Source: Parcubacteria group bacterium Gr01-1014_3 (lineage in GTDB: Bacteria; Patescibacteriota; Minisyncoccia; UBA6257; WO2-44-18). From it: DNA of 64,000 bases. How positions within the stretch are numbered: position 1 is the first letter of the stretch; every line of letters begins with the position of its first letter. The notes under the pieces were generated by a model, which worked only from the letters and a program-made list of their open reading frames with translations, did no database searches and was not told the origin of the DNA. The position numbers were made by a program, and so were the translations under genes. The stretch is taken from positions 316,203-380,202 of the forward strand of contig VMGF01000001.1 in NCBI GenBank assembly GCA_007376445.1, written 5' to 3'. Positions 1,459 to 58,700 of this stretch are shown in pieces.

Positions 1459-1465
1459 ACGAATG

Positions 1466-1523
1466 CCAGGTAGTGAAAACTCGAGCCTGCCTGGCAAAAA
1501 ACACTCGAGTTTCTACTACCTGG
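1466..1523. repeat. Family A inverted-repeat element, copy 1 (58 nt; CCAGGTAGTGAAAACTCGAG ... CTCGAGTTTCTACTACCTGG)
   Basis: It is a near-perfect palindrome filling the valS-to-next-gene spacer. It ends 1 nt before the ATG at 1525. The same termini recur at 40637 and 48564. Confidence 0.85.
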
Positions 1524-1524
1524 A

Positions 1525-2223
1525 ATGCTGATCTTCAACTATATTTTACTTACAATTCTCGGCCTCGCGCCAAGCCTTACCTGGCTGGTTTTTTATCTCC
1601 GCGAGGACGCGAATCACCCCGAACCGCGCAAGCTTCTTTTATATACTTTCCTGTCCGGCGCCGTCATCACGCTGATGGTGCTTCAGATCCAGCTGATCGT
1701 GAATCGCTGGCTGGTGAATTCTGGCGTGGATGGCTACGGATCGATCTCATTCTTAATGCTGGCGATCGTGGAGGAGTTCTTTAAATTTCTGGCTGTCTAT
1801 TTGGTGATCCGATATCGGCCGGAGTTTGATGAGCCGGTGGACGCGATGATTTATATGATAGTCGGAGCGCTTGGTTTTGCCGCGGTGGAGAACGTGGCCT
1901 CGGTTTTTCAGGCGACTGGTTCCTTTTTCCCGAAACCTGGTCCGTTGGAGACCACTATCTTGCGGTTCGTGGGCGCGACCCTGCTTCACACGCTTGCTTC
2001 CGGTTTCGTGGGTTATGAGTGGGGAAAGGCTAAGGCGGAGGGCCGGGACCCAAAGTTCAGCATTTTCATCGGCCTTGTCGGCGCCACTTTATTGCACGCA
2101 ATTTTCAATTATCTTATAATTAAATCAGGTCCGGTAACGCTGCCGATAGTGCTCCTGGTTCTGGTAGCGCCGTTTCTTCTTAGCGATTTTGAAAAACTGA
2201 AACATCTCCGGAATAAAATTTAA
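1525..2223 (+). CDS. PrsW-family intramembrane metalloprotease-like membrane protein
   Basis: It is a multi-TM protein with EEFFKFL, FAAVEN and HTLASGF motifs resembling the PrsW EExxK / FxxxEN / H signature. Confidence 0.55.
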   Translation: MLIFNYILLTILGLAPSLTWLVFYLREDANHPEPRKLLLYTFLSGAVITLMVLQIQLIVNRWLVNSGVDGYGSISFLMLAIVEEFFKFLAVYLVIRYRPEFDEPVDAMIYMIVGALGFAAVENVASVFQATGSFFPKPGPLETTILRFVGATLLHTLASGFVGYEWGKAKAEGRDPKFSIFIGLVGATLLHAIFNYLIIKSGPVTLPIVLLVLVAPFLLSDFEKLKHLRNKI

Positions 2224-11373: not shown

Positions 11374-11497
11374 GTAAATTTTCAATGCTCAATTTTAAAT
11401 TTTCATTGAATTTTCAATGAACTAATTTTTAAACCCTGAAAATTATCAAATTGATAATTGATTGGAAATTGTTGCTTGAAAATTGTAAATTGATTCT

Positions 11498-17280: not shown

Positions 17281-19608
17281 ATGGCATATAATTTTAAGAA
17301 AATTGAGGCGGCTTGGCAGAAAGTTTGGGCAAAAAATAAGCATAAAATTTGGGCCGCGGAGGACCAATCCGTCAAACCGAAGCAATATGTTCTCGATATG
17401 TTCCCGTATCCATCCGGCGAGGGCCTTCACGTCGGTCACGTCGAGGGTTATACCGCTTCCGACGTCTATTCTCGCTTTATGCGGATGAATGGCTACAATG
17501 TCGTCCACCCGATGGGCTGGGATGCCTTTGGACTCCCGGCGGAGAATTACGCTATCAAAACCAAACAGCACCCGGAGAAGGTGGTTAAAAAGAATGTAAA
17601 AAGATTCCAGGAGCAATTACAAAGCCTGGGATTCAGTTATGACTGGCAGAGAGAGATCAACACCACCGATCCGGAATATTATAAATGGACACAGTGGATT
17701 TTCGTGCAACTTTTTAAAAAAGGATTGGCATATGAAGCGGAGCTTCCGGTGAACTGGTGCCCGAAAGATAAAACGGTATTGGCAAACGAAGAGGTGGTTG
17801 ATGGTTGCTGTGAGCGGTGCGGGACGGCCGTGGAACGGCGCAATTTAAAGCAGTGGATTTTAAAGATCACTGCTTACGCCGATCGGTTATTAAATGACTT
17901 AGATGGCTTGGATTGGCCGGAGCGCGTTAAAGAAATGCAAAGAAACTGGATCGGCCGATCCGAGGGAGCCATCATTAAGTTTCAAGTTGTAAGTTCTAAG
18001 TTTCAAATTGAAGTTTTCACTACCCGGCCGGACACGCTCGCCGGTGTCACATATATGGTTCTTGCTCCGGAGCATCCACTGATCGGAAAGCTGGTGGTCA
18101 ACGCGGAAAACGTCAAAGAGATCGAGTCGTATATTCAAAAATCCAAGAACAAGAGCGATCGGGAGCGTCAGGAAAATAAAGAAAAAACTGGCGTGGCCTT
18201 GAAGGGGGTCATGGCCGTAAATCCGATCAGCCAAGAAAAAATTCCGGTCTGGATCGCTGACTATGTGTTGGCCCAATATGGGACGGGCGCGATCATGGCC
18301 GTGCCACAACACGACGAGCGTGACCGGGAATTCGCCGAAGCCTTCCATCTTCCGATTATCGATAAGCCCTTGATAGATAAAGAAACGGCTATCCAAAAGG
18401 CAGGGGGTGTAAAAAAAGTTAATTTTAAATTGCGCGACTGGATTTTTTCCCGTCAGAGATACTGGGGCGAGCCGATCCCGATCATTAAATGCCCGACCTG
18501 TGGCAATCAGCCGGTAGCCGAGGAAGATCTTCCGGTAAAATTACCGAATGTTAAGAATTATGAACCGACCGGTAATGCCGAGTCTCCACTCGCCGCTATA
18601 ACGAAGTGGGTCAATGTGAAATGTCCAAAGTGCGGAGGCGACGCCAAGAGAGAAACGAACACGATGCCGCAGTGGGCCGGTTCGTGCTGGTACTACCTCG
18701 CATATCTTATGCGAGGAATTTCCAATTTCCAATTTCCAATTTCCAAATACAAAGAGGTTTTTGATCATTGGCTTCCGGTGGATTTATATTTGGGCGGCGT
18801 GGAGCACGCCGTGCTTCATCTTTTATACGCGAGATTTTGGCACAAGTTTTTATTTGATATCGGCGTAGTTTCCACCAGTGAACCATTCAAAAAACTTGTG
18901 AATCAGGGACTGATTCTTGGCCCGGACGGACAAAAGATGTCCAAGTCCAAGGGTAACGTAGTCAGTCCAGATGAAATGGTGGAAAAATTCGGAGCTGATT
19001 CACTTCGCCTATACGAAATGTTCATGGGCCCGCTTGAAGACGCGAAACCATGGGATCCGACCGGAATCGTGGGCGTTCACCGGTTCCTCGGCAGGATATA
19101 TAACCTTGCGTTAAAAATCCAAAATCCAAAATCCAAAATCCAAAATTCAAAACTTGATCAACTTTTACACAAAACCATAAAAAAAGTTACCGAGGATATT
19201 CAGGGATTTCATTTCAACACCGCCATCAGCGCTCTTATGATCTTGCTGAACGAGATAGAAAAACAGCCGGAGGCCGCGGCCGCGCATGTACCCACGATCG
19301 CTAAGCTGCTTTTCCCGTTAGCGCCACATTTGGCTCAAGAAGTTTGGAAAATGCTGGGCAACAAAGGCTTGCTGGATCACGAAGAGTGGCCGAAGTATGA
19401 AAAGGCGCTGATTGAAGACGCGGAATTTGAACTGGTCATACAGATCAACGGCAAAGTCCGCGATCACGTGATGGTTAAAAAGGGTATTGGTCAGTCGGAG
19501 GCTGAAAAGCTGACACTGAACCGGGAAATAGTGAAGAAGTGGCTGGAAGGAAAGCCGCCCAAGAAGATTATTTTCGTCAAAGACAGGTTGCTCAACGTAA
19601 TTGTTTAA
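17281..19608 (+). CDS. leuS: leucyl-tRNA synthetase
   Basis: It has PYPSGEGLHVGHVEGY (HIGH) and KMSKSKGN motifs plus a CP1 editing domain. It carries three in-frame repeat-encoded inserts: QVVSSKFQIEV, SNFQFPISKYK and KIQNPKSKIQNSK. Confidence 0.95.
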   Translation: MAYNFKKIEAAWQKVWAKNKHKIWAAEDQSVKPKQYVLDMFPYPSGEGLHVGHVEGYTASDVYSRFMRMNGYNVVHPMGWDAFGLPAENYAIKTKQHPEKVVKKNVKRFQEQLQSLGFSYDWQREINTTDPEYYKWTQWIFVQLFKKGLAYEAELPVNWCPKDKTVLANEEVVDGCCERCGTAVERRNLKQWILKITAYADRLLNDLDGLDWPERVKEMQRNWIGRSEGAIIKFQVVSSKFQIEVFTTRPDTLAGVTYMVLAPEHPLIGKLVVNAENVKEIESYIQKSKNKSDRERQENKEKTGVALKGVMAVNPISQEKIPVWIADYVLAQYGTGAIMAVPQHDERDREFAEAFHLPIIDKPLIDKETAIQKAGGVKKVNFKLRDWIFSRQRYWGEPIPIIKCPTCGNQPVAEEDLPVKLPNVKNYEPTGNAESPLAAITKWVNVKCPKCGGDAKRETNTMPQWAGSCWYYLAYLMRGISNFQFPISKYKEVFDHWLPVDLYLGGVEHAVLHLLYARFWHKFLFDIGVVSTSEPFKKLVNQGLILGPDGQKMSKSKGNVVSPDEMVEKFGADSLRLYEMFMGPLEDAKPWDPTGIVGVHRFLGRIYNLALKIQNPKSKIQNSKLDQLLHKTIKKVTEDIQGFHFNTAISALMILLNEIEKQPEAAAAHVPTIAKLLFPLAPHLAQEVWKMLGNKGLLDHEEWPKYEKALIEDAEFELVIQINGKVRDHVMVKKGIGQSEAEKLTLNREIVKKWLEGKPPKKIIFVKDRLLNVIV

Positions 19609-33522: not shown

Positions 33523-33723
33523 TTATAGACCCTCCGCTTTTTCGAGGTTAAAGTTAACAATTTCCGGTGGAGATGACAAGGATTGGTTTCGGGACTGAAT
33601 GACTCTTTTGGCGAGGAAAGATACGCCCAGGGAAGCGATGGCGCTCAGGATCATTAGTATTATCAATCCAGCTACTACCAGGGCGATCGAGGCCTTTCGA
33701 TGTTTTTCTTGATGGAAGTCCAT
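33523..33723 (-). CDS. hypothetical small membrane protein
   Basis: It has a single TM. Its ATG is formed at the terminus of Family B element copy 1. It overlaps another small ORF (33324-33560) out of frame. This may be a frameshifted gene. Confidence 0.3.
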   Translation of the reverse strand: MDFHQEKHRKASIALVVAGLIILMILSAIASLGVSFLAKRVIQSRNQSLSSPPEIVNFNLEKAEGL

Positions 33724-33840
33724 CCCGTTAGAAGCAGGTCGTCGAAGACGACCGTAGATCTGCCGTCCGACAACGGTTTGGTAAAAATTTTAATTTATTA
33801 TTCGGGTTTTGTGTCATAGATTAGTTGCTTCTAACGGGAT
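33722..33840. repeat. Family B inverted-repeat element, copy 1 (119 nt; ATCCCGTTAGAAGCA ... TGCTTCTAACGGGAT)
   Basis: It has 15-bp terminal inverted repeats. It exactly fills the spacer between the PilO-like stop and the 33723 start. A second 119-nt copy lies at 55628 in inverted orientation. Confidence 0.85.
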
Positions 33841-33845
33841 CCATT

Positions 33846-38850: not shown

Positions 38851-40588
38851 GCGGGGTCAAGGAGCTTTTATGAACGTAAAAGAACTTATTCAAAAAGACA
38901 AATACAGCCTAGTGGCGAGAGCCTATGAGTTCGCCCGCAAAGCCCACTTGGGCCAGAAGCGGAAAAACGGCGAACCTTACTTTACGCACGTCGTAGCCGC
39001 CGCTGACTCGGTTTTGGAATGGGGGCTGGATGATGAGACTGCCGCCGCGGCTTTGTTGCACGATGTCGTCGAAGATACGCCTCACCCGATCCAGGAGATC
39101 CGGGAAACATTCGGAGAGGAAGTCGCTTTCCTGGTGGATGGCGTCACCAAGATTGGCAAGGTCCGCTATCGGGGCATTGAGGCCAAGGTGGAAAATCTCC
39201 GGAAATTTATTTTGTATCTCAGCCAGGACATGCGCGTGATCTTGGTGAAGTTGGCCGATCGTCTTCATAATATGAAGACTTTGTATGCAGTTCAGCCGCA
39301 AAAGCAAAAGCGGATCGCGCTCGAAACCATGGAGATCTACGCGCCTCTCGCGTACCGCTTGGGTATGCAGAGGCTGAGTGGAGAGCTGGAAGATCTGTCC
39401 TTTCCATATATTTATCCAGAGGAGCATAAGTGGCTGATCGGTCATGTTAAAGAGCGCTTCGAGGAGCGGGAACGTTTCGCGCAAAAACTTCGCCCGGTTA
39501 TTGAAAAAGAACTTAATAAGAATGGCATTGAATCGGTCCGGATTGATTCACGCGCTAAACGGTATACGAGTTTATATAAAAAATTGCTCCGCTATGATAT
39601 GAACGTCGAGAGCATCTACGATCTCGTGGCTATCCGCATCATCGTTCCTTCGCTGGAGGACTGTTACTCGGCGCTGGGTATCGTCCACAAAATGTACCCG
39701 CCGGTACCTCATCGTTTCAAAGACTATGTCGCTCTTCCGAAGTCCAACGGTTATCGGAGTTTACACACCACGGTTTTCGGTCCGGAAAATAAGATCACCG
39801 AAATCCAGATAAAAACCGAGCAGATGCATGATGAAGCGGAGCATGGCATCGCCGCGCATTTCGCCTATCAAAAAACCAAAGACTCCAAGGATTATCTCAA
39901 GCGCAACGCCGCTTTTGCCGACAAAAAGGAGCTGGTTTGGGTTCAACAGCTGAAGAACTGGCAAAAGGGTTTTACGAATCCGGAAGAATTCCTGGCTTCT
40001 TTGAAGATAGACTTCTTTCAGGACAGGATATTAGCGCTCACGCCTAAGGGCGAAGTCTTTGATCTGCCGTTTGGCGCGACACCGGTAGATTTCGCCTATC
40101 AGATCCACACCGAAATCGGGAATCATTGCTCCGGCGTAAAGATCAACGGCAAGATCGGCACACTCGATCATTTGTTGAAATCCGGCGATATCGTGGAGAT
40201 CATCACGCAAAAAAATAAGAACCCCTCGGATTCCTGGCTTAACTTCGTACGCACCGGATCGGCCAAAAATCATATCCGCGCCGCTTTGCGCCACGGGAAG
40301 ACCACCTTAAATAAGAGCGAACCGCAGTTCACGGATTTTCGTCTGGCCGTAGCAAATAGAGATGGACTATTTAATGAGATTTCAAACTTAATATCCCGTT
40401 CGCACGGAAATATCCTGACGCTTAACGCTCAAACCACGACCAACGCCAAAGGCGGGCAAGCCGGCAATCAAAAACACACTCTACTCAAAATTCGTTGCGC
40501 GGTTTTGGCGAAAGATAAATCTGAAAAGATGCTGGAGAAGTTAAAAGGGTTTAAGGAAATAAAGGAAATTTCTTACAAGTCGGTTTAG
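38849..40588 (+). CDS. rel: bifunctional (p)ppGpp synthetase/hydrolase Rel/SpoT homolog (short, lacks ACT domain)
   Basis: It has an HD hydrolase domain HLGQKRKNGEPYFTHV...LHDVVEDT, a synthetase domain RIDSRAKRYTSLYKKL...YRSLHTTVFGP, and a TGS domain. It ends before a canonical ACT domain. The start may be the Met at 38870. Confidence 0.85.
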   Translation: MRGQGAFMNVKELIQKDKYSLVARAYEFARKAHLGQKRKNGEPYFTHVVAAADSVLEWGLDDETAAAALLHDVVEDTPHPIQEIRETFGEEVAFLVDGVTKIGKVRYRGIEAKVENLRKFILYLSQDMRVILVKLADRLHNMKTLYAVQPQKQKRIALETMEIYAPLAYRLGMQRLSGELEDLSFPYIYPEEHKWLIGHVKERFEERERFAQKLRPVIEKELNKNGIESVRIDSRAKRYTSLYKKLLRYDMNVESIYDLVAIRIIVPSLEDCYSALGIVHKMYPPVPHRFKDYVALPKSNGYRSLHTTVFGPENKITEIQIKTEQMHDEAEHGIAAHFAYQKTKDSKDYLKRNAAFADKKELVWVQQLKNWQKGFTNPEEFLASLKIDFFQDRILALTPKGEVFDLPFGATPVDFAYQIHTEIGNHCSGVKINGKIGTLDHLLKSGDIVEIITQKNKNPSDSWLNFVRTGSAKNHIRAALRHGKTTLNKSEPQFTDFRLAVANRDGLFNEISNLISRSHGNILTLNAQTTTNAKGGQAGNQKHTLLKIRCAVLAKDKSEKMLEKLKGFKEIKEISYKSV

Positions 40589-41559
40589 ACTGTGAAATCT
40601 TGCGGGGGGTACTGCTCGCCCTCTACTGGCTGCCTGCCAGGTAGTGAAAGTTCGGCAGGCTCGCCAGAGGCGAGCGGATCAGCAGTGGCCGAACTTCTAC
40701 TACCTGGTTCCGGGATTATTCTTTGCACGATATTCATCAGTTCTTCGGGAGAATAAAAAGCGATGGTCAGTTTGCCCGTGGCGCCGTCCTGCTCGAGTTT
40801 TACTTTTGTACCAAGCGCGGCTTCCAGGTCTTGTTGTACGCGGAGCAGTTCTGGATTAACGCCATAATTTAAAATCTCTGGCGCCGGCTGGGCTTTTTCT
40901 TGTTTCACTTTATCGATCCGGGATTTTAATTCGCGGACGCTGAGGTTGTTGCGTATAATATCCTCAAAAAGGAAATTTTGCTGCTGGATATCCGGCACGC
41001 TGAGAAGTAGGCGGCCCTGGCTTTCGTTGATCTGGCCACGGGCGACCGCGTCTTGGATCGGGGTCGGAAGAGCGAGCAGGCGGATGGTGTTGGCGACCAC
41101 CTCACGGCTTTTACCAAGGCGGGCGCCGATCTCGCGCTGGGTCAGGTTGAACTCATCCTGAAGCCGGGAGTAGGCGCGGGCGGCTTCGATGGCGTTTAAG
41201 TTGGAGCGCTGGACGTTTTCCAAGATAGCCAACTCCAACCGATCCCGATCGCGATTGATGCTTTTGATGATCGCCGGAATACGTTCCAGGCCGGCCATCT
41301 GGGAAGCTCGCCAGCGCCGTTCACCGGCGATAAGCTGATACTGAACTTGTGTGCCCGTCTCAGTTTCCTGCTCAACCTTGGTGACGATGATCGGCTGAAG
41401 CACGCCGAATTCTCGGATGGAAGCCGCGAGCTCGCCCAATTCTTGTTCGTTAAATTCCCGCCGTGGCTGATACGGGTTAGGGGAGATCCGGTCGGTTTCA
41501 ATTAAAAAAACTGGGCCTTGAATCGGTAAGTCTTCCATAATATTCACAGTATAGCCCAA
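40585..41559 (-). CDS. parB: chromosome partitioning protein ParB/Spo0J
   Basis: It has the ParB box GERRWRA and an HTH. The native C-terminus KLTIAFYSPEELMNIVQRII is extended by about 35 aa that read into Family A element copy 2. Confidence 0.85.
   Translation of the reverse strand: MGYTVNIMEDLPIQGPVFLIETDRISPNPYQPRREFNEQELGELAASIREFGVLQPIIVTKVEQETETGTQVQYQLIAGERRWRASQMAGLERIPAIIKSINRDRDRLELAILENVQRSNLNAIEAARAYSRLQDEFNLTQREIGARLGKSREVVANTIRLLALPTPIQDAVARGQINESQGRLLLSVPDIQQQNFLFEDIIRNNLSVRELKSRIDKVKQEKAQPAPEILNYGVNPELLRVQQDLEAALGTKVKLEQDGATGKLTIAFYSPEELMNIVQRIIPEPGSRSSATADPLASGEPAELSLPGRQPVEGEQYPPQDFTV
40637..40707. repeat. Family A inverted-repeat element, copy 2 (71 nt; CCAGGTAGTGAAAGTTCGGC ... 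GCCGAACTTCTACTACCTGG)
   Basis: It has the same termini as copies 1 and 3, including the conserved TGAAA/TAGAA asymmetry. Its internal stem has a different sequence but remains complementary. Confidence 0.8.
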
Positions 41560-41606: not shown

Positions 41607-41689
41607 GCTCGGGTGGCGGAACGGCAGACGCAATGGACTCAAAATCCATCGATCGCAAGGTCATGAGGGTTCAAGTCCCTCCCCGAGCA
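41607..41689 (+). tRNA. tRNA-Leu(CAA), type II
   Basis: The cloverleaf is GCTCGGG-TG-GCG...-ATGGA-CTCAAAA-TCCAT-long variable arm-GAGGG-TTCAAGT-CCCTC-CCCGAGC-A. Confidence 0.8.
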
Positions 41690-42066
41690 CACTTCGACTC
41701 GCTTTGCTCGCTCAGTGTAAACACTGACGAGGCGAAGTACCCTGAGCCCGTCGAAGGGCCTCAATATTTTTTATGAATTGGTTTGTATATATTGCCGAAT
41801 CAAAATTTGGACATTATTATACCGGAATTACCACGGATCCTTCGCAGCGGATAATTAAACACAATACTGGCAGGGGATCTCAGATGGGAAAGCAGCAGGG
41901 GCCATTTGAACTGATCTATGCCTCCAGGCCATTTCCCAATAAATCCGAAGCGCGAAAAAGAGAAATCCAAATCAAGGGTTGGACTAGAGATAAAAAAAGA
42001 AAGCTAATATTAGGAGAATGGGTCTAATTTACTCCGAGCACATTTCGACTTCGCTCAGTGTAAACA
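41683..42066 (+). mobile_element. small integrated element carrying a GIY-YIG nuclease gene, bounded by direct repeats of the tRNA-Leu(CAA) 3' end
   Basis: DR-A at 41683-41723 (ccgagcacacttcgactcgctttgctcgctcagtgtaaaca) includes the last 7 nt of the tRNA. DR-B at 42034-42066 (ccgagcacatttcgacttcgctcagtgtaaaca) lies immediately after the GIY-YIG stop. Confidence 0.7.
41773..42027 (+). CDS. GIY-YIG nuclease superfamily protein (small, URI-domain only)
   Basis: FVYIAESKFGHYYTGITTDPSQRIIKHN matches the GIY-(10-11)-YIG plus R/H core. Confidence 0.75.
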   Translation: MNWFVYIAESKFGHYYTGITTDPSQRIIKHNTGRGSQMGKQQGPFELIYASRPFPNKSEARKREIQIKGWTRDKKRKLILGEWV

Positions 42067-42103
42067 AACTAAAAAACCTCCACAGCGTGGAGGTTTAAAT
42101 TAT

Positions 42104-45935: not shown

Positions 45936-46034
45936 TGTTTATTAATGAATAAATAATTTTCAATTATAAATTATAAATTTTAAATTAATTTAAAATTTTA
46001 AAATTAAAAATTTATAATTCATTTTGGTTAATGA

Positions 46035-47513
46035 CTATGTTCGGTATAACAATAGGTCCCCCTTGGCGATTTTGGTGGTTGACTCAACCAGGAGGCCGCA
46101 CTCATTTCCGGTCTCAATTTTACCAGCATCCTTTTTGCCCTGTTGTAGGTTAGTGATTTTCAATTCGCCAATAACCGAACCGTTCCGTTCGATAGCTAGC
46201 GTGGATTTATTCAAGATCACGCCCTCGATGACTTTCCCGCCGATAATTTGCTTGCCTGCAGTAGCCTTAGCGGGGGTGGTTTTTCCGCTCTCCCCAAAGA
46301 TGGCCAGAATTTCCAGACGACCGACAACCTGAGGCAGATAGGCCTTTGCCAGCTCTTGCTCGATAACTTTCAAAAGATCGTAAACGATCTCAGATTGGAT
46401 AATTTTAATTTTATGATCCAGGGCCAGAGCTTCCGCCGGTTTAGTGATTTTTGTTTTAAAACCCACGATAACGGCCTTGGTGGAGATCGCGAGTTTTACA
46501 TCGCCATCGGTGATATCGCCGACCGATTCTTCAATGATCTCAATTTTCTGAGTTTTCTTGAGCGGCAGACTTTTTACGATTTCCGCGAGCGCTTCCAAAG
46601 AACCCGAAACATCAGCTTTCAGGATCACGTTCACATCGGACTCGCTGGTCTTGCTCGCCGCGATAACTTTCTTAATTTTAATATTCGGTTCATTTTTTCC
46701 GGCCACGAAATTTTCACCGGCCTTCGGCAGGCTTTCCAATCCAAAGATCAGCGCAGGGGAAGATGGGCTGATTTCTTTGACCGCTTTGCCCAAAAAGTTT
46801 TCCAGCATTTTCACTTTGCCGTTGGCGCTCTCGGTGGAAATGAGATCTCCGAAGCGTAAAGTGCCATCGGTCACGATGACCGTGGCTACGACGCCGCGGC
46901 GGGAGTCCATTTTGGATTCCAAAATCAAACCGCTGGCCGGTTTAGCGGGATCATATTCCAGATCTTCCAGTTCCGAAGCCAAGAGAACCAGGTCGAGAAG
47001 TTCATTTACGCCTTGGCCGCTTTTGGCGGAAATTTCCTGATTGCTTACATCGCCACCATAGCCTTCGAGGAATACTTCGCTCTGCATCAGCTCGTTTTTA
47101 ATTTTATTCGGATCCACGCCTTCCTTGTCGATTTTATTGATAGCGACAATGAAAGTCGTTTTAGTTTCTTTAAGAATTTTTATTGCGGCTTTAGTTTGTG
47201 GCTGGACGCCGTCATCGGCGGCTACCACCAAGATTGCCACGTCGGCGACATGCGCTCCGCGAGTTTTCATCTTACCGAAAGCTTCATGGCCCGGAGTGTC
47301 AATAAAAGTGATTCGCGCTGCTTGTCCTGAGCTTGCCGAAGGATGGACAATCTCATAAGCCCCAATGGACTGGGTAATACCGCCGGCTTCTTTAGCGGCT
47401 ACGTTGGTCTTCCGGATATAGTCGAGCAGCGTGGTCTTTCCATGGTCCACACTGCCCATGATTACTATGATAGGCGATCGTTTTGGCATAGTTATGTGGT
47501 TAAAGATTGCCAC
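46035..47513 (-). CDS. infB: translation initiation factor IF-2 (short form lacking N-terminal domains)
   Basis: It has the G-domain IVIMGSVDHGKTTLLDYI, GGITQSIGAY and DTPGHEAF, followed by beta-barrel domains. It is upstream of rbfA on the same strand. Confidence 0.9.
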   Translation of the reverse strand: MAIFNHITMPKRSPIIVIMGSVDHGKTTLLDYIRKTNVAAKEAGGITQSIGAYEIVHPSASSGQAARITFIDTPGHEAFGKMKTRGAHVADVAILVVAADDGVQPQTKAAIKILKETKTTFIVAINKIDKEGVDPNKIKNELMQSEVFLEGYGGDVSNQEISAKSGQGVNELLDLVLLASELEDLEYDPAKPASGLILESKMDSRRGVVATVIVTDGTLRFGDLISTESANGKVKMLENFLGKAVKEISPSSPALIFGLESLPKAGENFVAGKNEPNIKIKKVIAASKTSESDVNVILKADVSGSLEALAEIVKSLPLKKTQKIEIIEESVGDITDGDVKLAISTKAVIVGFKTKITKPAEALALDHKIKIIQSEIVYDLLKVIEQELAKAYLPQVVGRLEILAIFGESGKTTPAKATAGKQIIGGKVIEGVILNKSTLAIERNGSVIGELKITNLQQGKKDAGKIETGNECGLLVESTTKIAKGDLLLYRT

Positions 47514-47648
47514 AAAAATTGATTTTGAGCAAATTCTGTAAAATTTTAAAGTCCAAATTTTAAATTTTAAGTTAATTTTTTAATTTTGAAATTTATAAAT
47601 TGATTTAAAATTGAAAATTTAAAATTGAAAATTCTGTATACTTAAGGT

Positions 47649-48542: not shown

Positions 48543-48563
48543 TGTTGTATAATTAGGAATATG

Positions 48564-48684
48564 CCAGGTAGTGAAAACTCGAGCAATGAATTCAGCGAGA
48601 AAGCTAAGTTTTTACTATCCAGCATGCCAGGCAAGGAGACTCGGTCCTGTCTGGCAAAACTAAACTCGAGTTTCTACTACCTGG
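48564..48684. repeat. Family A inverted-repeat element, copy 3 (121 nt, carries a ~60-nt nested internal insertion)
   Basis: Its termini are ccaggtagtgaaaactcgag ... cctgtctggcaaaactaaactcgagtttctactacctgg. The outer halves are colinear with copy 1. The internal segment itself contains a degenerate end-to-start junction (tttttactatccagcatgccagg). It ends 1 nt before the ATG at 48686. Confidence 0.8.
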
Positions 48685-48685
48685 T

Positions 48686-50053
48686 ATGCGATTAGTTGAA
48701 AAATTCTTTGTAATTGTAGCTTTGGTTCTGGGCGGATGCGCGGTTATTGCAGCGATGGAGCCGAACTATGCCCTGGCGGCTTCCAAGATTATTTCTATCA
48801 GCATAGATAATCCGGATGGGCCGTTAAAATCATCTACGGTTAGTTTCTCTATACCATTTGGCCTGGCGCCGATCAACTTAACCGACGCGATGAATTGGAA
48901 TTCAAGCGCGAGGCGGCTTGAGATCGATCTCGGTTCGTTCACCACCAAAGAAACCAAGACGGTAATTTTTGCTATCGAAGGCGAGCTCGGAAATTATTTA
49001 GTGAGCGGTGAGATCACCGGCGTCTGGCCGAAAACCAACTCGTTGCCGGAAGAATCTTTCAAAGGCACGATCGATCCATTCGTGGTGCTGATCGAGCCGG
49101 AAGGTAGCCAATCTTCAGTTTTAGAATTTCTGGACAATCTTAGGCGTGATCCTCGCGTGGCCGGTCCTATGGCCAAGATCGCCCAGCCGGTTTCCGTGGC
49201 TCTAGGCGCCGTTGGCACAGCCGCCGCGGCTGCCAACGCTTTTATGACGAGCCCGGCGCTTCTCGCCGAGCTTTCCCGCCTGCTCAGCTTGTTTGGCTTC
49301 GGTATGTTCCGTCTTAAAAAACGGAAGCCATGGGGTCGGGTCTACGACCGCCTGACTGATAATCCGATCTATGGAGCGGTAGTTAAAATATTTGATTCAA
49401 AATATAAATTGGCGAAAGAAACGCAGACCACGGACAAAGAAGGTCGTTTTGGATTTTTAGTTTCGTCGGGCGAGTATTACATCCGCATTATACGCGCCGG
49501 CTATGAAGATTATCAGTCCGCGCTTATTAAAATTTCCCAGCCGGATCAGTCTTTGATCTTGGATGTGCCGATGGTAGTAACGGGAGCAACGATAAAGAGG
49601 CCAATGATCAACACCCTGAAACTCAAGCAGCAGCTTCGTGACGTTTTTTATGTCAGCGGTTTGGCGCTGACGGTGATCGGCAGTCTGATCAGCTTGGCGG
49701 TGGCGCTGATAGTGCCGAGTATACTCAACTACGGGATCGTGTTGGTTTATCTGATCCTCTGGGTCTTCCGGATTGGGATGGCGCACGAGCATGTTAAATC
49801 TTTCGGCAAAGTTTTGGATAAGTCCACGAATAAACCGGTGGATCTGGCCGTGGTCAGATTATTCTCCGCCGATCAATCCTGGTTATTGGAGACGCGAGTG
49901 ACCGACGCGAGCGGCAAGTTCCGTTTCTTGGTGAATCACGGCGGTTATTATGTGACTGCCGTCAGAGAAGGATATGGGTCTTTCCAGTCCGCTCCGCTAG
50001 AACTTAAGAAATCCGACGTCTTCGCGCACGATATTAAAATAGAGAGGGCATAG
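48686..50053 (+). CDS. membrane protein with two carboxypeptidase-regulatory-like (CarboxypepD_reg) domains
   Basis: It has an N-terminal TM. Two homologous blocks, VVKIFDSKYKLAKETQTTDKEGRFGFLVSSGEYYIRIIRAGYEDYQS and VVRLFSADQSWLLETRVTDASGKFRFLVNHGGYYVTAVREGYGSFQS, are separated by TM helices. Confidence 0.5.
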   Translation: MRLVEKFFVIVALVLGGCAVIAAMEPNYALAASKIISISIDNPDGPLKSSTVSFSIPFGLAPINLTDAMNWNSSARRLEIDLGSFTTKETKTVIFAIEGELGNYLVSGEITGVWPKTNSLPEESFKGTIDPFVVLIEPEGSQSSVLEFLDNLRRDPRVAGPMAKIAQPVSVALGAVGTAAAAANAFMTSPALLAELSRLLSLFGFGMFRLKKRKPWGRVYDRLTDNPIYGAVVKIFDSKYKLAKETQTTDKEGRFGFLVSSGEYYIRIIRAGYEDYQSALIKISQPDQSLILDVPMVVTGATIKRPMINTLKLKQQLRDVFYVSGLALTVIGSLISLAVALIVPSILNYGIVLVYLILWVFRIGMAHEHVKSFGKVLDKSTNKPVDLAVVRLFSADQSWLLETRVTDASGKFRFLVNHGGYYVTAVREGYGSFQSAPLELKKSDVFAHDIKIERA

Positions 50054-50174
50054 AAATAATTTTCAATTTCCAAATACCAATTTTCATTCAACAATCAATA
50101 TTCAAACTTCAACCGGTTTGAAAATTAATCCTTGTAAATTGATTGAAAATTGTAAAATTGAGAATTGATAATTT

Positions 50175-55560: not shown

Positions 55561-55627
55561 AACTCTAACCTGTTAACAAAACCAGCTCCTTTATTGGAGC
55601 TGGTTTTGTTATAATAAAATGGAATGA

Positions 55628-55746
55628 ATCCCGTTAGAAGCAACTGGTCAATAATTATGAAAAACGATCTCATTTTTACGATAACCCTAGAATCAAATAG
55701 TCGGGCACTTTACGGTCGTCTAATGACGACCTGCTTCTAACGGGAT
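55628..55746. repeat. Family B inverted-repeat element, copy 2 (119 nt, inverted relative to copy 1)
   Basis: atcccgttagaagcaac ... cggtcgtctaatgacgacctgcttctaacgggat. The last AT of the right terminus plus a flanking G forms the start codon of the 55745 gene. Confidence 0.85.
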
Positions 55747-58700
55747 GAAGAAGATCCTCTTTTTAGCCACTGGCGCGGTTTTAATCGTTTTACTAGCAAT
55801 GATCGCTTACGGCTATGCTTTTTATCGTAGCCTGAATCCATTTATAGTTTTTGATCCGGGATTTTATTTTACTCCACAGCTCGAGTTGGTTTTAAAAACC
55901 AAGGGCCAGCCTTCCGCGGCGGGTCAACAGGCGAGCGTTTTAGAAACGCTCACGCTTCCGATCGTCTGGCCACCGATTACCGGAAGCTCGGTATTTAATT
56001 TCACTCTACCCAGCCAGGTTTCCGCTGCCTTGGAGTCTAACGGCCAGCTTGTTAACCCATATTTAGTTTTGAGTTTTGCGTTAGTTCCTAGCGAGGGCGT
56101 TTCTTCGGTGCCACCTCTCACGGTGGGCGAATTGTCATTTGAGCCAATCGTTCCACCAGCCGCGACGGGGGAGTTCGAGTTGATTTTGCCGATCACAAGC
56201 GATCAAGAAAATGTTAGCGTGGTTCTACCGCCGAGCCTGATCGCCGCCTACAATAATCTTGCTAACGAAATTATCGCCGCCGAGGAAGCTGGTGGAGCAG
56301 AAGAGTCTTCGGCGACTGGTGGTTCGTCTGTTTCCAGCGGAGGAACGGCACCGTCTAGTGGGGCTGGTTCGCCAGCTTCTGGCGCAGGCTTACCCGCCCC
56401 TGGCGTTGGCTCCACGGGTTCAGCTCCATCATCTGGCGGATCACCGTCTTCTGGTAGTGGTACAGGAGCGCCTGGCGGTTCTAGCGTGCCTGCTTCTGGT
56501 TCTGGTTTTCCCACCTCTGGCTCGGGCTTTCCTGCCTCTGGCACTGGTTTACCAGCACCATCGAATGTGATTACTGAGACCGCGTCCGAACCAGGAATTA
56601 TCGAATCTTTTATCAACGCCATCGACGATGCCGTGGTCGCCATCAATGAATTTTTTACCGAACCATTCACTTCGATATTTATTGGAGAGCCAACTGACAC
56701 ACCTTCCACGCCATCGACTATCGTTTCATCATCAGGAACTGGCGGTGCGACATCGGCAGGTTCTGTTCCCGGCACTACGGTGCTCGCGCCTGCTGGCAGT
56801 ACTGCTACTTCTCCGGTTACATCAGGCACTTCTGGTTCCACGGCTACTGGCGGAACAGGACCGACGGCTCCCACGTCAGGCACCACCGCGACTTCGCCAT
56901 CCGGCATTTCTGCGACCGCTCCTGCTACATCAGTTTCAGCCCCGGCAACTGGCGATTCCACAGGATTTTTTGATAATGTTTTCAGCGCGATTGATACCGC
57001 AGTTACTTCAATCACAGGCTTCTTTATTGATCCGATAGTGACGACGGTTACTTCGATTTCGGATTCTATCAATATCATTGCCACAAATCTGCAACCCACC
57101 GTGTATCGGGATCTTGGTGACGCGCCCGCACCAGGGAATGGCGGGAATTATCCGTCGTTACTCGTAGATAACGGTTCTCGCCACAAAATTACCTTCCCAT
57201 TGTATTTAGGTTACTTGGTAGATGTCGAGCCAGACTCGCTTCAGGTAGATGACGATAATTTCGATGATGGCTTTGAGTCAACCACTTGGCTGATTAAAAT
57301 TTCCAATAACAGCTGGACCGAAGGGCCGATCTATCTCAATATGCTGATTGATCTTAATCACGACGGCGATTGGGACGAATCCGATACGGAGTGGGCTGTG
57401 AAAAATCAGCAGGTCATAGTTCCTGCCGGTACTTCCAAGACAGTCTTGCCACTCATCTCCAATCTGCTGGTTGGTTTGAATTTCCCGATCACGGATACTT
57501 GGATTCGCCTGACAGTTACTGCCACGCCGGTGGACGCTCCATATATCGGCACCGGAAGTTTCATGTATGGTGAGTCGGAAGATTATTTTGTGACGATCAA
57601 AACTCCACCACCACCAGCTAAAGCGTCTGTTTATAACAGCGGTGTGCCAGCAGTAAAACTGCCCGGAAAATTGGTTGGAGATATTGTTTCTGAGGTTGTT
57701 ATTGTAACTTCACCGACTGCCGATCCGGGCGGCTCTCCGGCCCCTAAGCCATCGGGAGTGGATACGGTGAATCAGTATGACCATCAGATCGAAGGATCTT
57801 TCTGGCATAGTTATCAATCAACTTACTACGAATGGAAGAAGCGTACCGAGGTTGAGACAGTCTCTGCCGGCAAAGCACCAGGCGTTGCGCCAGCTCCGGC
57901 TCCAGCCCCCACTCCATCAACGCCAGGACCGAGTACTGGTGGAACAACATCAGCGGATCGTCCACCATACGATCATCAAACCGAAGGATCTTTCTGGCAT
58001 AGCTACAGCGATTCATACTATCGTTGGAAAAATACGATTGAAGTTCCGGTTTCTACTGGCAAGCCTCCGGTTTCCGCGCCAACTCCAGCGCCAACTCCAA
58101 CTCCAACTCCAGCCCCAACTCCAGCGCCAACGCCAACTCCCGGCTCGGTCCGGCCGGATGGTTTTAAATATACCTACCACGTCTTCAACTCCAGCGATTA
58201 TGTTCCAGGTGTTTATCATATTGGCGAGACCACTGACATTAAATACACCGATCCGGGCATTGAGAAAGATGGTTATAGAGTTACCCCATTACCGTTCTAC
58301 TGCGCCGATTCTTCAAGCGATTCAGACAACTGCACCCCACCGAAGCCAATAGCCGTCGAAGATCTACCTTCAGTCCCAAGCGTGGATACATCAAAGCCGT
58401 TAATCACGCCGGTTACAGTTGTTATTGACGAAATTCCTGGCGGAGCCGGTAGCGATGTTTTGACTGCCCCGTCAGTATTCCAGAGGATTTTTGATAGCAT
58501 TACGGAATTTTTAAGCGTGGAGCCAGCCACACCGTCGATCCATGACACCATCCTTTCAATTCGTATTAAGAATCTTCGCGATACCGCCACGCAACCAGCG
58601 CCATTACCTTCTCCGATCGTACCTATTGAACCAACGCCCGGTCCTAAAACACCATTCTCGCCAACCGAACCACCGTATGTAGTCCCTCCCGTAGTTATTC

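Follow-up and report, generated by a model that had tools for sequence, protein, structure and literature searches.

What are the three short inverted repeats that lie beside or inside host genes in a 64,000-nucleotide stretch of DNA from Parcubacteria group bacterium Gr01-1014_3 (contig VMGF01000001.1, positions 316,203 to 380,202; the whole stretch is referred to here as the window), and what moves them? Our analysis reveals that the elements are mobile DNA. A first-pass annotation of the window had proposed a mobile family resembling miniature inverted-repeat transposable elements (MITEs), and this proposal is borne out by an empty insertion site in relatives, by more than 100 further copies with 4-bp duplications, and by nested and tandem insertions. 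The same termini also enclose elements of about 310 bp whose sole gene encodes a GIY-YIG nuclease. Comparison of these sequences makes it probable that the window copies, four units in all, are MITEs of a compact Patescibacteria transposon and that the GIY-YIG protein encoded by the 310-bp elements moves them in trans.

The family, called family A below, is defined by 20-bp inverted repeats of the form CC(A/G)GGTAGT-GA-AA plus 7 nt, with AG in place of GA at the other end, and by 4-bp duplications at Y-W-T-R targets. The three window copies lie at 1466-1523 (58 nt), 40637-40707 (71 nt) and 48564-48684 (121 nt), as first annotated, and their termini are indeed shared: exact matches to the 13-mers CCAGGTAGTGAAA and TTCTACTACCTGG number three apiece in the window and are always paired. 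With up to two mismatches allowed, the two 13-mers have 9 and 7 matches where 0.96 and 0.60 would be expected, and none of 100 shuffles reaches these numbers; further matches at 18015 and 31024 are solitary half-sites within coding sequence and were taken as chance. Read inward, each 20-nt arm consists of CCAGGTAGT, GA (left) or AG (right), AA and 7 variable nt. The asymmetry between left and right arms that had been noticed earlier is therefore present at arm positions 10-11, where fold-back produces a tandem G.T/A.C mismatch without a bulge. The inner 7 nt vary among the window copies (ACTCGAG versus GTTCGGC) yet remain complementary. Folding z-scores of the hairpins are -6 to -8 on either strand, and the RNA fold of copy 1 reaches -30.1 kcal/mol (z -7.6). 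The window copies have no coding capacity of their own, being units of 58-71 nt and a dimer of 121 nt, with no open reading frame (ORF) confined to an element.

Mobility is most directly seen at copy 1 (1466..1523, plus strand), which comprises a left arm at 1466-1485 (CCAGGTAGTGAAAACTCGAG), a loop at 1486-1503 and a right arm at 1504-1523 (CTCGAGTTTCTACTACCTGG). It lies between the valS stop codon (1458) and a gene of the PrsW family (1525..2223; Pfam PF13367), and is flanked by AATG at 1462..1465 and again at 1524..1527. In the relatives L241/L242, whose PrsW is 94% identical, the element is absent from the orthologous valS-prsW junction, a single AATG is present (TAGCCGAATGCAG) and the sequence has exactly 62 bp fewer: the empty-site contigs read ...GTTTAGCCGAATGCAGATC..., and the window reads ...GTTTAGACGAATG[58 nt]AATGCTGATC.... 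Clean empty sites were obtained for copy 1 and none for copies 2 and 3. The AATG/AATG and TATG/TATG flanks of copies 1 and 3, suspected at first pass to be target-site duplications, are such, and the start codons at which these elements were said to end (ATGs at 1525 and 48686) fall within the right-hand duplications, position 1525-1527 being the ATG of the PrsW-family gene.

Copy 3 lies between a xerC/D-like gene and the ATG of a gene for a 455-aa membrane protein. It had been described as one element nested in another; it does consist of two elements, but these are better described as head-to-tail tandem units sharing a CATG. From left to right it comprises a TATG duplication (48560..48563), copy 3a (48564..48622, plus strand; aligned to copy 1, with its left arm intact and its right arm degenerate, CTAAGTTTTTACTATCCAG), the CATG common to both units (48623..48626), which is the duplicated target of the second insertion, copy 3b (48627..48684, plus strand; left arm degenerate, CCAGGCAAGGAGACTCGG, right arm intact), and the right TATG (48685..48688), of which 48686-48688 form the start codon. 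Copy 3b is homologous to copy 1 throughout, interior included, and both inner ends of the dimer have decayed. None of the evidence gathered implicates the adjoining xerC/D-like integrase.

Further copies are abundant beyond the window. When one genome per species was searched for the two termini at a spacing of 28-58 nt, at least 117 loci were obtained, and a scan of metagenomes for a spacing of 272-302 nt gave at least 120; among the matches listed, these yielded 108 distinct short elements and 63 distinct long elements of 300-325 bp. The short-element loci are almost all from Patescibacteria, and those listed include Yanofsky-, Portnoy-, Giovannoni-, Gottesman-, Harrison- and Azambacteria, Saccharibacteria and Paceibacteria. 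Perfect 4-bp duplications flank 64 of the 108 short elements, where shuffled flanks give about 7, and 24 more have duplications with one mismatch; the target consensus is Y-W-T-R, and TATG is the commonest target. Among the long elements, 39 of 63 have perfect duplications, against 11 in the control. In one case a short element is nested in the left arm of a long element with an AAAA duplication, and taking the short element out of the sequence restores a long-element arm that matches more than 30 other elements. Neighbouring elements are spaced exactly 4 nt apart at L152, L182 and L214, as in copy 3, and a tRNA-tRNA spacer of 11 nt in L050 corresponds to one of 92 nt (11 + 77 + 4) in L037. 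Thus, the window elements show the features by which MITEs are recognised: they are short and non-coding, have terminal inverted repeats and a fixed 4-bp duplication, are dispersed and polymorphic for insertion, and share their termini with an ORF-bearing element (49 of the 63 long elements listed have an intact GIY-YIG ORF).

Two family-A-like observations fall outside the main group. A MITE typical of family A, inserted at a start codon and flanked by a TATG duplication, occurs at L036 6061-6140 in a metagenome-assembled genome (MAG) labelled Candidatus Humimicrobiaceae rather than Patescibacteria, which could be horizontal transfer or a binning error. Also, the 11-mer CCAGGTAGTGA, identical to the family-A terminus, is found in many palindromic arrays of the Verrucomicrobiae MAG CAVXLO01, which does not belong to the candidate phyla radiation (CPR). 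These arrays (L017, L029, L032, L055, L063, L068, L069, L074, L078, L080, L095, L098, L100 and L105) consist of 3-7 direct copies of the 11-mer followed by inverted copies, an architecture unlike that of family A. A phage database queried with a full-length element gave no match.

The duplications also bear on whether the repeats might be palindromes of the repetitive extragenic palindromic (REP) or REPIN kind, handled by a RAYT (a Y1 HUH enzyme), or else intrinsic terminators. The elements are palindromic and intergenic, and the arm contains GTAG, a tetranucleotide characteristic of many REP sequences. However, REP/RAYT and IS200/IS605-type movement proceeds without target duplication, whereas family-A elements have 4-bp duplications. 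Ordinary termination, which the earlier annotation had named as an alternative, is contradicted by the lack of a T-run after any right arm in the window (the sequence continues AATGCTG, TTCCGGG and TATGCGA) and by the location of the elements, which are upstream of starts rather than downstream of stops, one of them being inside parB. We give these two explanations practically no weight.

The long elements provide the candidate for the enzyme. L072 has the same termini and a TATG duplication and encloses an 88-aa ORF, and L057 is arranged likewise; among the matches listed, the intact ORFs encode GIY-YIG proteins of 82-96 aa. The layout is compact: a 20-bp left arm and about 7 nt are followed by the ORF of about 88 aa, whose stop codon adjoins the right arm. 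In 38 of the 49 intact elements, 19-20 nt remain between this stop codon and the end of the element. The GIY-YIG gene is the sole gene in 49/49 ORF-bearing elements, packed end to end between the arms. A Portnoybacteria MAG (PEYL01) contains an ORF-bearing copy together with many MITEs. Across all elements in the 1.7 Mb of loci fetched, sizes are bimodal with peaks at 50-100 and 300-350 bp. Only three terminus pairs 420-4000 bp apart were found in these loci, with unmatched arms and without duplications, and they were taken as chance rather than as a longer parent element.

The long-element protein scores 55-64 bits against Pfam PF01541 (GIY-YIG; cut-off 22.6). The only other domain matches are weak ones to T5orf172 and MUG113, and a search of Pfam and NCBIfam revealed no DDE, DEDD, HUH, serine or tyrosine transposase domain; the single NCBIfam match is sub-threshold, to a group I intron endonuclease model. 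By sequence, the nearest solved structures are the UPF0213 protein BH0048 (E 4e-6) and Slx1. An AlphaFold model (pLDDT 89) has its closest folds in BH0048, EF2693 and the nuclease domain of Slx1, with UvrC and I-TevI ranking far lower (Foldseek versus PDB: 1zg2, E 1e-4; Slx1 entries, E 3e-3 to 5e-2; UvrC and I-TevI, E >1). The protein therefore belongs to the Slx1/UPF0213 branch of the GIY-YIG superfamily. An alignment of 45 sequences, with members 66-87% identical to the first, contains 23 invariant residues, among them Y4, Y6, R27, H31, N32 and E51, for which homology suggests catalytic roles. In public annotations these proteins appear as 'putative endonuclease', 'GIY-YIG nuclease family protein' or 'excinuclease ABC subunit C'.

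How might the ends be recognised? Conservation within the arms covers positions 1-9 and 12, with either A-T or G-C at position 3, and positions 10-11 form the G.T/A.C combination in every scored short (106) and long (63) element. The scored sets had been retrieved or filtered as GA/AG, so that the unbiased count comes from a purine-pair scan of positions 10-11, in which GA/AG accounts for 72 of 77 cases, GA/GA and AG/AG for 0 each and other combinations for 5. At positions 13-20, Watson-Crick pairs make up at least 90% and each position has 2-4 pair types, in both short and 310-bp elements; pairing stays at 90% or above across positions 12-20 and drops to background at position 21. The GA is at the 5' end of the ORF in 44 intact long elements and reversed in 5, and since the duplication and host gene follow the ORF in these 5 of 49, the GA/AG asymmetry was rejected as the determinant of orientation.

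The stem covariation had first been read as selection for a hairpin in RNA or in cruciform DNA. The covariation is real; it is a property of terminal inverted repeats and not a specific sign of an RNA hairpin, which is not singled out because the same covariation is found with arms about 270 bp apart and without a strand-specific excess of G.U pairs. Pairing in single-stranded or cruciform DNA, or one protein recognising both ends, is at least as likely. A stronger form of the RNA interpretation would make the hairpins functional structured RNAs in the first place, either 5'-UTR elements or small RNAs, and their mobility secondary. The high stability of the hairpins, the covariation, a compensatory change between orthologous copies and the many copies directly upstream of start codons all agree with this interpretation. 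However, the duplications and the empty site point to an origin by insertion, the arms of the long elements covary around an intervening ORF, and wobble pairs at positions 13-20 (25 G.T/T.G versus 19 A.C/C.A) have no strand bias, which counts against strand-specific selection on RNA. Copies also occur in both orientations, inside coding sequence and beside tRNAs. No Rfam family matches the elements: at the gathering threshold Rfam 15 recovers only tRNAs from the whole window, and relaxed searches of the surroundings of copies 1 and 2 gave nothing beyond matches far below threshold, to generic miRNA and snoRNA precursors. A primary role as RNA is therefore very improbable.

Placement relative to host genes follows a clear pattern. 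A host start lies directly downstream on the same strand in 34 of the 49 intact long elements, and at the upstream end on the opposite strand in 1. Read in the orientation of the ORF, the duplication is TATG in 21 of the 49; other subfamilies duplicate ATGA, TGGA or the ribosome-binding site of the host (GGAG/GAGG/AGGA), in which case the host ATG follows 8-10 nt further on. Since the duplication copies the host ATG or the Shine-Dalgarno GGAG, the start of the host gene is kept intact. Where the duplication is NATG, an open frame joins the upstream copy of the host ATG to the nuclease ORF in 15 of 22 elements, so that gene callers annotate proteins extended by MPGSENST. The short elements have a host start at the right end in about 35 cases and at the left end in about 19, and some lie in TTGA(C) or TATA sequences resembling promoter boxes. 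Hairpins before host starts reach -30 to -55 kcal/mol. Read-through of an upstream ORF for translational coupling was considered and rejected, as the reading frame of the upstream ATG stays open through the element in 13 of 22 insertions at start codons and in 48 of 86 others, a lack of enrichment that is also a point against the structured-RNA interpretation.

One subfamily, which duplicates TGGA and has CCGGG ends, is nearly site-specific: it inserts at ...TATTATTGGACCGGNTAA, at gene 3' ends encoding ...DFSIMAYYW. Its target resembles the element's own left junction, and tandem arrays also form there. At its metagenome loci (L135, L145, L146, L165, L179, L196, L203 and L230) the target was also recorded as ...TAYTGGACCGGNTAA, with products ending in a dockerin-like ...DGKVDLVDFSIMAYYW motif.

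Copy 2 (40637..40707, plus strand; arms at 40637-40656 and 40688-40707, inner hairpin at 40659-40675) lies within a gene. It occupies the 3' end of the parB ORF (40585..41559, minus strand, convergent with relA/spoT) and, read on the minus strand, encodes ParB residues PGSRSSATADPLASGEPAELSLPG. Together with a duplication it adds 71+4 = 75 nt, in frame, or 25 ParB codons. The first-pass annotation took it for a C-terminal extension recruited by parB. Read-through in frame is upheld, and most ParB homologues stop about 45 residues earlier than the window protein, but a simple extension is not what happened: close relatives share the terminal QYPPQDFTV, so the insertion entered a pre-existing tail. 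Copy 2 is thus an old in-frame insertion in the 3' tail of parB. Its flanks are decayed duplications, CCTG at 40633..40636 (CAGG on the parB strand) and TTCC at 40708..40711 (GGAA on the parB strand). In L250, whose ParB is 90% identical, the orthologous copy has an intact CGAA/CGAA duplication and termini CCGGG...CCCGG, a compensated A-T to G-C change at arm position 3; its inner stems are unchanged relative to copy 2 and the differences are confined to the loops. In L251 (~960-1060; ParB 80% identical) a decayed remnant, AACCAGCCTCGCCGAGTC...TTCTTCCCTACCCGCCGA, at the position of copy 2 now contributes to a longer ParB tail and suggests that an old insertion is becoming absorbed into coding sequence. 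Locus L249 was rejected as an empty site for copy 2: its arms are unrecognisable, but it has a 9-mer in common with the interior of the element. Among 23 elements within open frames, length plus duplication is divisible by 3 in 15 (p = 0.002).

What, then, would the nuclease do? In the mechanism that we favour, a small structure-specific nuclease recognises the paired arms, in which the conserved outer 12 bp with the G.T/A.C mismatch act as a landmark and the inner 8 bp provide a stem whose sequence does not matter. The nuclease would break the DNA at the element ends and make a 4-nt staggered break in the target, and host repair and replication would complete the insertion by filling the stagger. 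Recognition of paired arms is suggested by the Slx1-like nearest relatives of the protein, by inner arms that pair but vary in sequence, and by the fixed mismatch 9 bp from the ends. From this we infer that the GIY-YIG protein is the mobility enzyme and that arms paired in single-stranded or cruciform DNA are the form recognised. A bolder proposal is that the Slx1/UPF0213-like nuclease of about 88 residues is itself the transposase of a new class of insertion sequence, which would recognise its ends by structure, leave joining to host repair and be expressed from host starts or Shine-Dalgarno sequences. On this stronger claim we are evenly divided.

Several points weigh against the nuclease as the mobilising enzyme, and some of them would favour a conventional transposase that escaped sampling and acts in trans, with the GIY-YIG gene as a passenger such as an addiction or homing-helper nuclease. 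Enzymes of the GIY-YIG type are hydrolytic nucleases, and we know of none that acts as a transposase or makes 4-nt staggered breaks, nor was a GIY-YIG protein that catalyses transposition found in the literature searched. A 4-bp duplication with 20-bp inverted repeats is typical of DDE elements, and 88 residues are very few for both end recognition and target cleavage. The 64-kb window contains MITEs and no ORF-bearing family-A copy, its sole GIY-YIG ORF (41773..42027) being a divergent type without family-A arms. The interiors of the MITEs have no demonstrable similarity to the ORF, so that 'deletion derivative' is an unsupported term for elements that share their termini only. Inner-arm divergence follows protein divergence (Spearman -0.53), and co-descent or protein-DNA co-evolution could therefore explain the covariation without pairing; as a test of sequence-specific versus structural recognition of the inner arm this correlation is uninformative, because co-descent predicts the same pattern. 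Finally, sampling was driven by the two gap patterns of 28-58 and 272-302 nt only, and other size classes may have been missed. Against a conventional transposase, no longer element with family-A ends was found in the 1.7 Mb of loci, every ORF-bearing element carries GIY-YIG as its only gene, the ORFs stay intact with their invariant residues, and at least two other, unrelated types of inverted repeat (L039 and L043) also enclose a GIY-YIG ORF. We consider a conventional transposase unlikely, and continue to prefer mobilisation by the GIY-YIG protein.

The divergent GIY-YIG gene in the window encodes a UPF0213-like protein of 84 aa on the plus strand (41773-42027; E 4e-9 against the family-A profile) and immediately follows tRNA-Leu(caa). 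Direct repeats of about 40 bp (~41683-41726 and 42034-42068), which include the tRNA 3' end (CCGAGCACAYTTCGACT...CGCTCAGTGTAAACA), flank the ORF, and there are no inverted repeats. A GIY-YIG ORF likewise follows a tRNA directly in L027. From its sequence context, the window gene looks like a different, tRNA-targeting GIY-YIG cassette.

Other repeats in the window are of different types. Two MITE-like copies of a 'family B' lie at 33721-33845 and 55626-55747. Their termini are ATCCCGTTAGAAGCA / TGCTTCTAACGGGAT, and in each copy the final ...GGGAT and the G that follows it make the ATG of the adjoining gene; the duplication may be 2 bp (AT). These termini resemble those of the GIY-YIG element in L039 (ATCCTGTTAGAGATA...TATCTCTAACAGGAT+G, giving the ATG of an ABC ATPase gene). 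In addition, AT-rich repeats of the (TTGAAAATTGAAAATT) type occur at 512-569, 11379-11436, 45949-46010, 47578-47639 and 50053-50174. One of them is inside the valS coding region, and 45949-46010 and 47578-47639 form a 62-nt, 82%-complementary inverted repeat that flanks an ORF for a 492-aa GTPase (IF-2-like; 46035..47513).

The family is widespread in CPR/Patescibacteria and apparently undescribed: no account of a GIY-YIG transposase, or of GIY-YIG MITE or inverted-repeat elements in CPR, was found in the literature searched, the coverage of which was incomplete. The tiny, streamlined genomes of Patescibacteria are thought to be poor in mobile elements; the present family is abundant and has reached many candidate phyla. 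Gene calling is affected as well, both by the MPGSENST... N-terminal extensions and by a ParB tail that is element sequence. Insertion at start codons and ribosome-binding sites with duplication of these signals is a neat way to exploit host expression while sparing the gene. If the bolder proposal is true, the ~310-bp element would be the smallest autonomous DNA transposon known, and many multi-copy 'GIY-YIG nuclease family protein' genes and hairpin repeats in CPR bacteria would be explained. A GIY-YIG mobility enzyme would represent a sixth chemical type of transposase and lower the size limit for autonomous elements, and part of the bacterial stand-alone Slx1-like proteins would then have to be re-read as selfish genes. 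A compact, structure-guided nuclease with a defined DNA landmark may be of practical interest.

Family A can be compared with several known systems. Like the bacterial MITEs (Correia/NEMIS of Neisseria, RUP, Nezha and Chunjie), the short elements are non-coding, dispersed and hairpin-capable, have inverted repeats and a short duplication, lie near gene starts and share termini with an ORF-bearing element. They differ in that the partner encodes a GIY-YIG nuclease only instead of a DDE transposase, in that the duplication is 4 bp at Y-W-T-R rather than TA, and in that the outer 12 bp, including the GA/AG mismatch, are conserved across class-level Patescibacteria lineages. Copy 2 resembles the Rickettsia palindromic elements as a palindromic repeat that is inserted in frame (75 nt) and translated within a host protein; the two are unrelated in sequence, and the Rickettsia elements have no known autonomous partner or clear duplication.

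The long elements share with insertion sequences (for example, the IS5 group with its YTAR target) the order inverted repeat-ORF-inverted repeat, the 4-bp near-palindromic duplication and the MITE derivatives. However, they are ~310 bp long, compared with at least ~700 bp for known insertion sequences, and their ORF encodes a GIY-YIG nuclease and not a recognised type of transposase. With the GIY-YIG homing genes (I-TevI and the Seg proteins) they have in common a selfish element whose sole product is a GIY-YIG nuclease. The homing enzymes have a C-terminal DNA-binding domain, cut at sites that are long and specific, and depend on recombinational repair for their spread, with neither inverted repeats nor duplications; here, in contrast, there is a bare catalytic domain of 82-96 aa with diverse 4-mer sites, inverted repeats and duplications, although the TGGA subfamily does display a longer preferred site. 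Insertions with GIY-YIG in CPR rRNA genes have been reported to resemble no intron and seem not to spread by homing (PMC11270868).

Slx1 and UPF0213 (YhbQ-like) proteins are nearest in sequence and fold, and the structure-specific cutting of branched and stem-loop DNA by Slx1 fits arms that must pair. The prokaryotic Slx1-like proteins were treated as vertically inherited housekeeping genes in a 2006 survey of the superfamily (PMC1564403), whereas the gene described here is bounded by inverted repeats and duplications and occurs at many sites. Integron attC sites and the ends of IS200/IS605 elements offer a parallel of another kind, as they too have a fixed hairpin imperfection in a stem that is otherwise free to vary, and such an imperfection suggests recognition by structure; those systems use tyrosine recombinases or HUH enzymes and produce no target duplication, and no such enzyme is associated with family A. 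Set beside these systems, the window feature represents a new MITE family and its partner a new variant of transposable element, possibly a new class.

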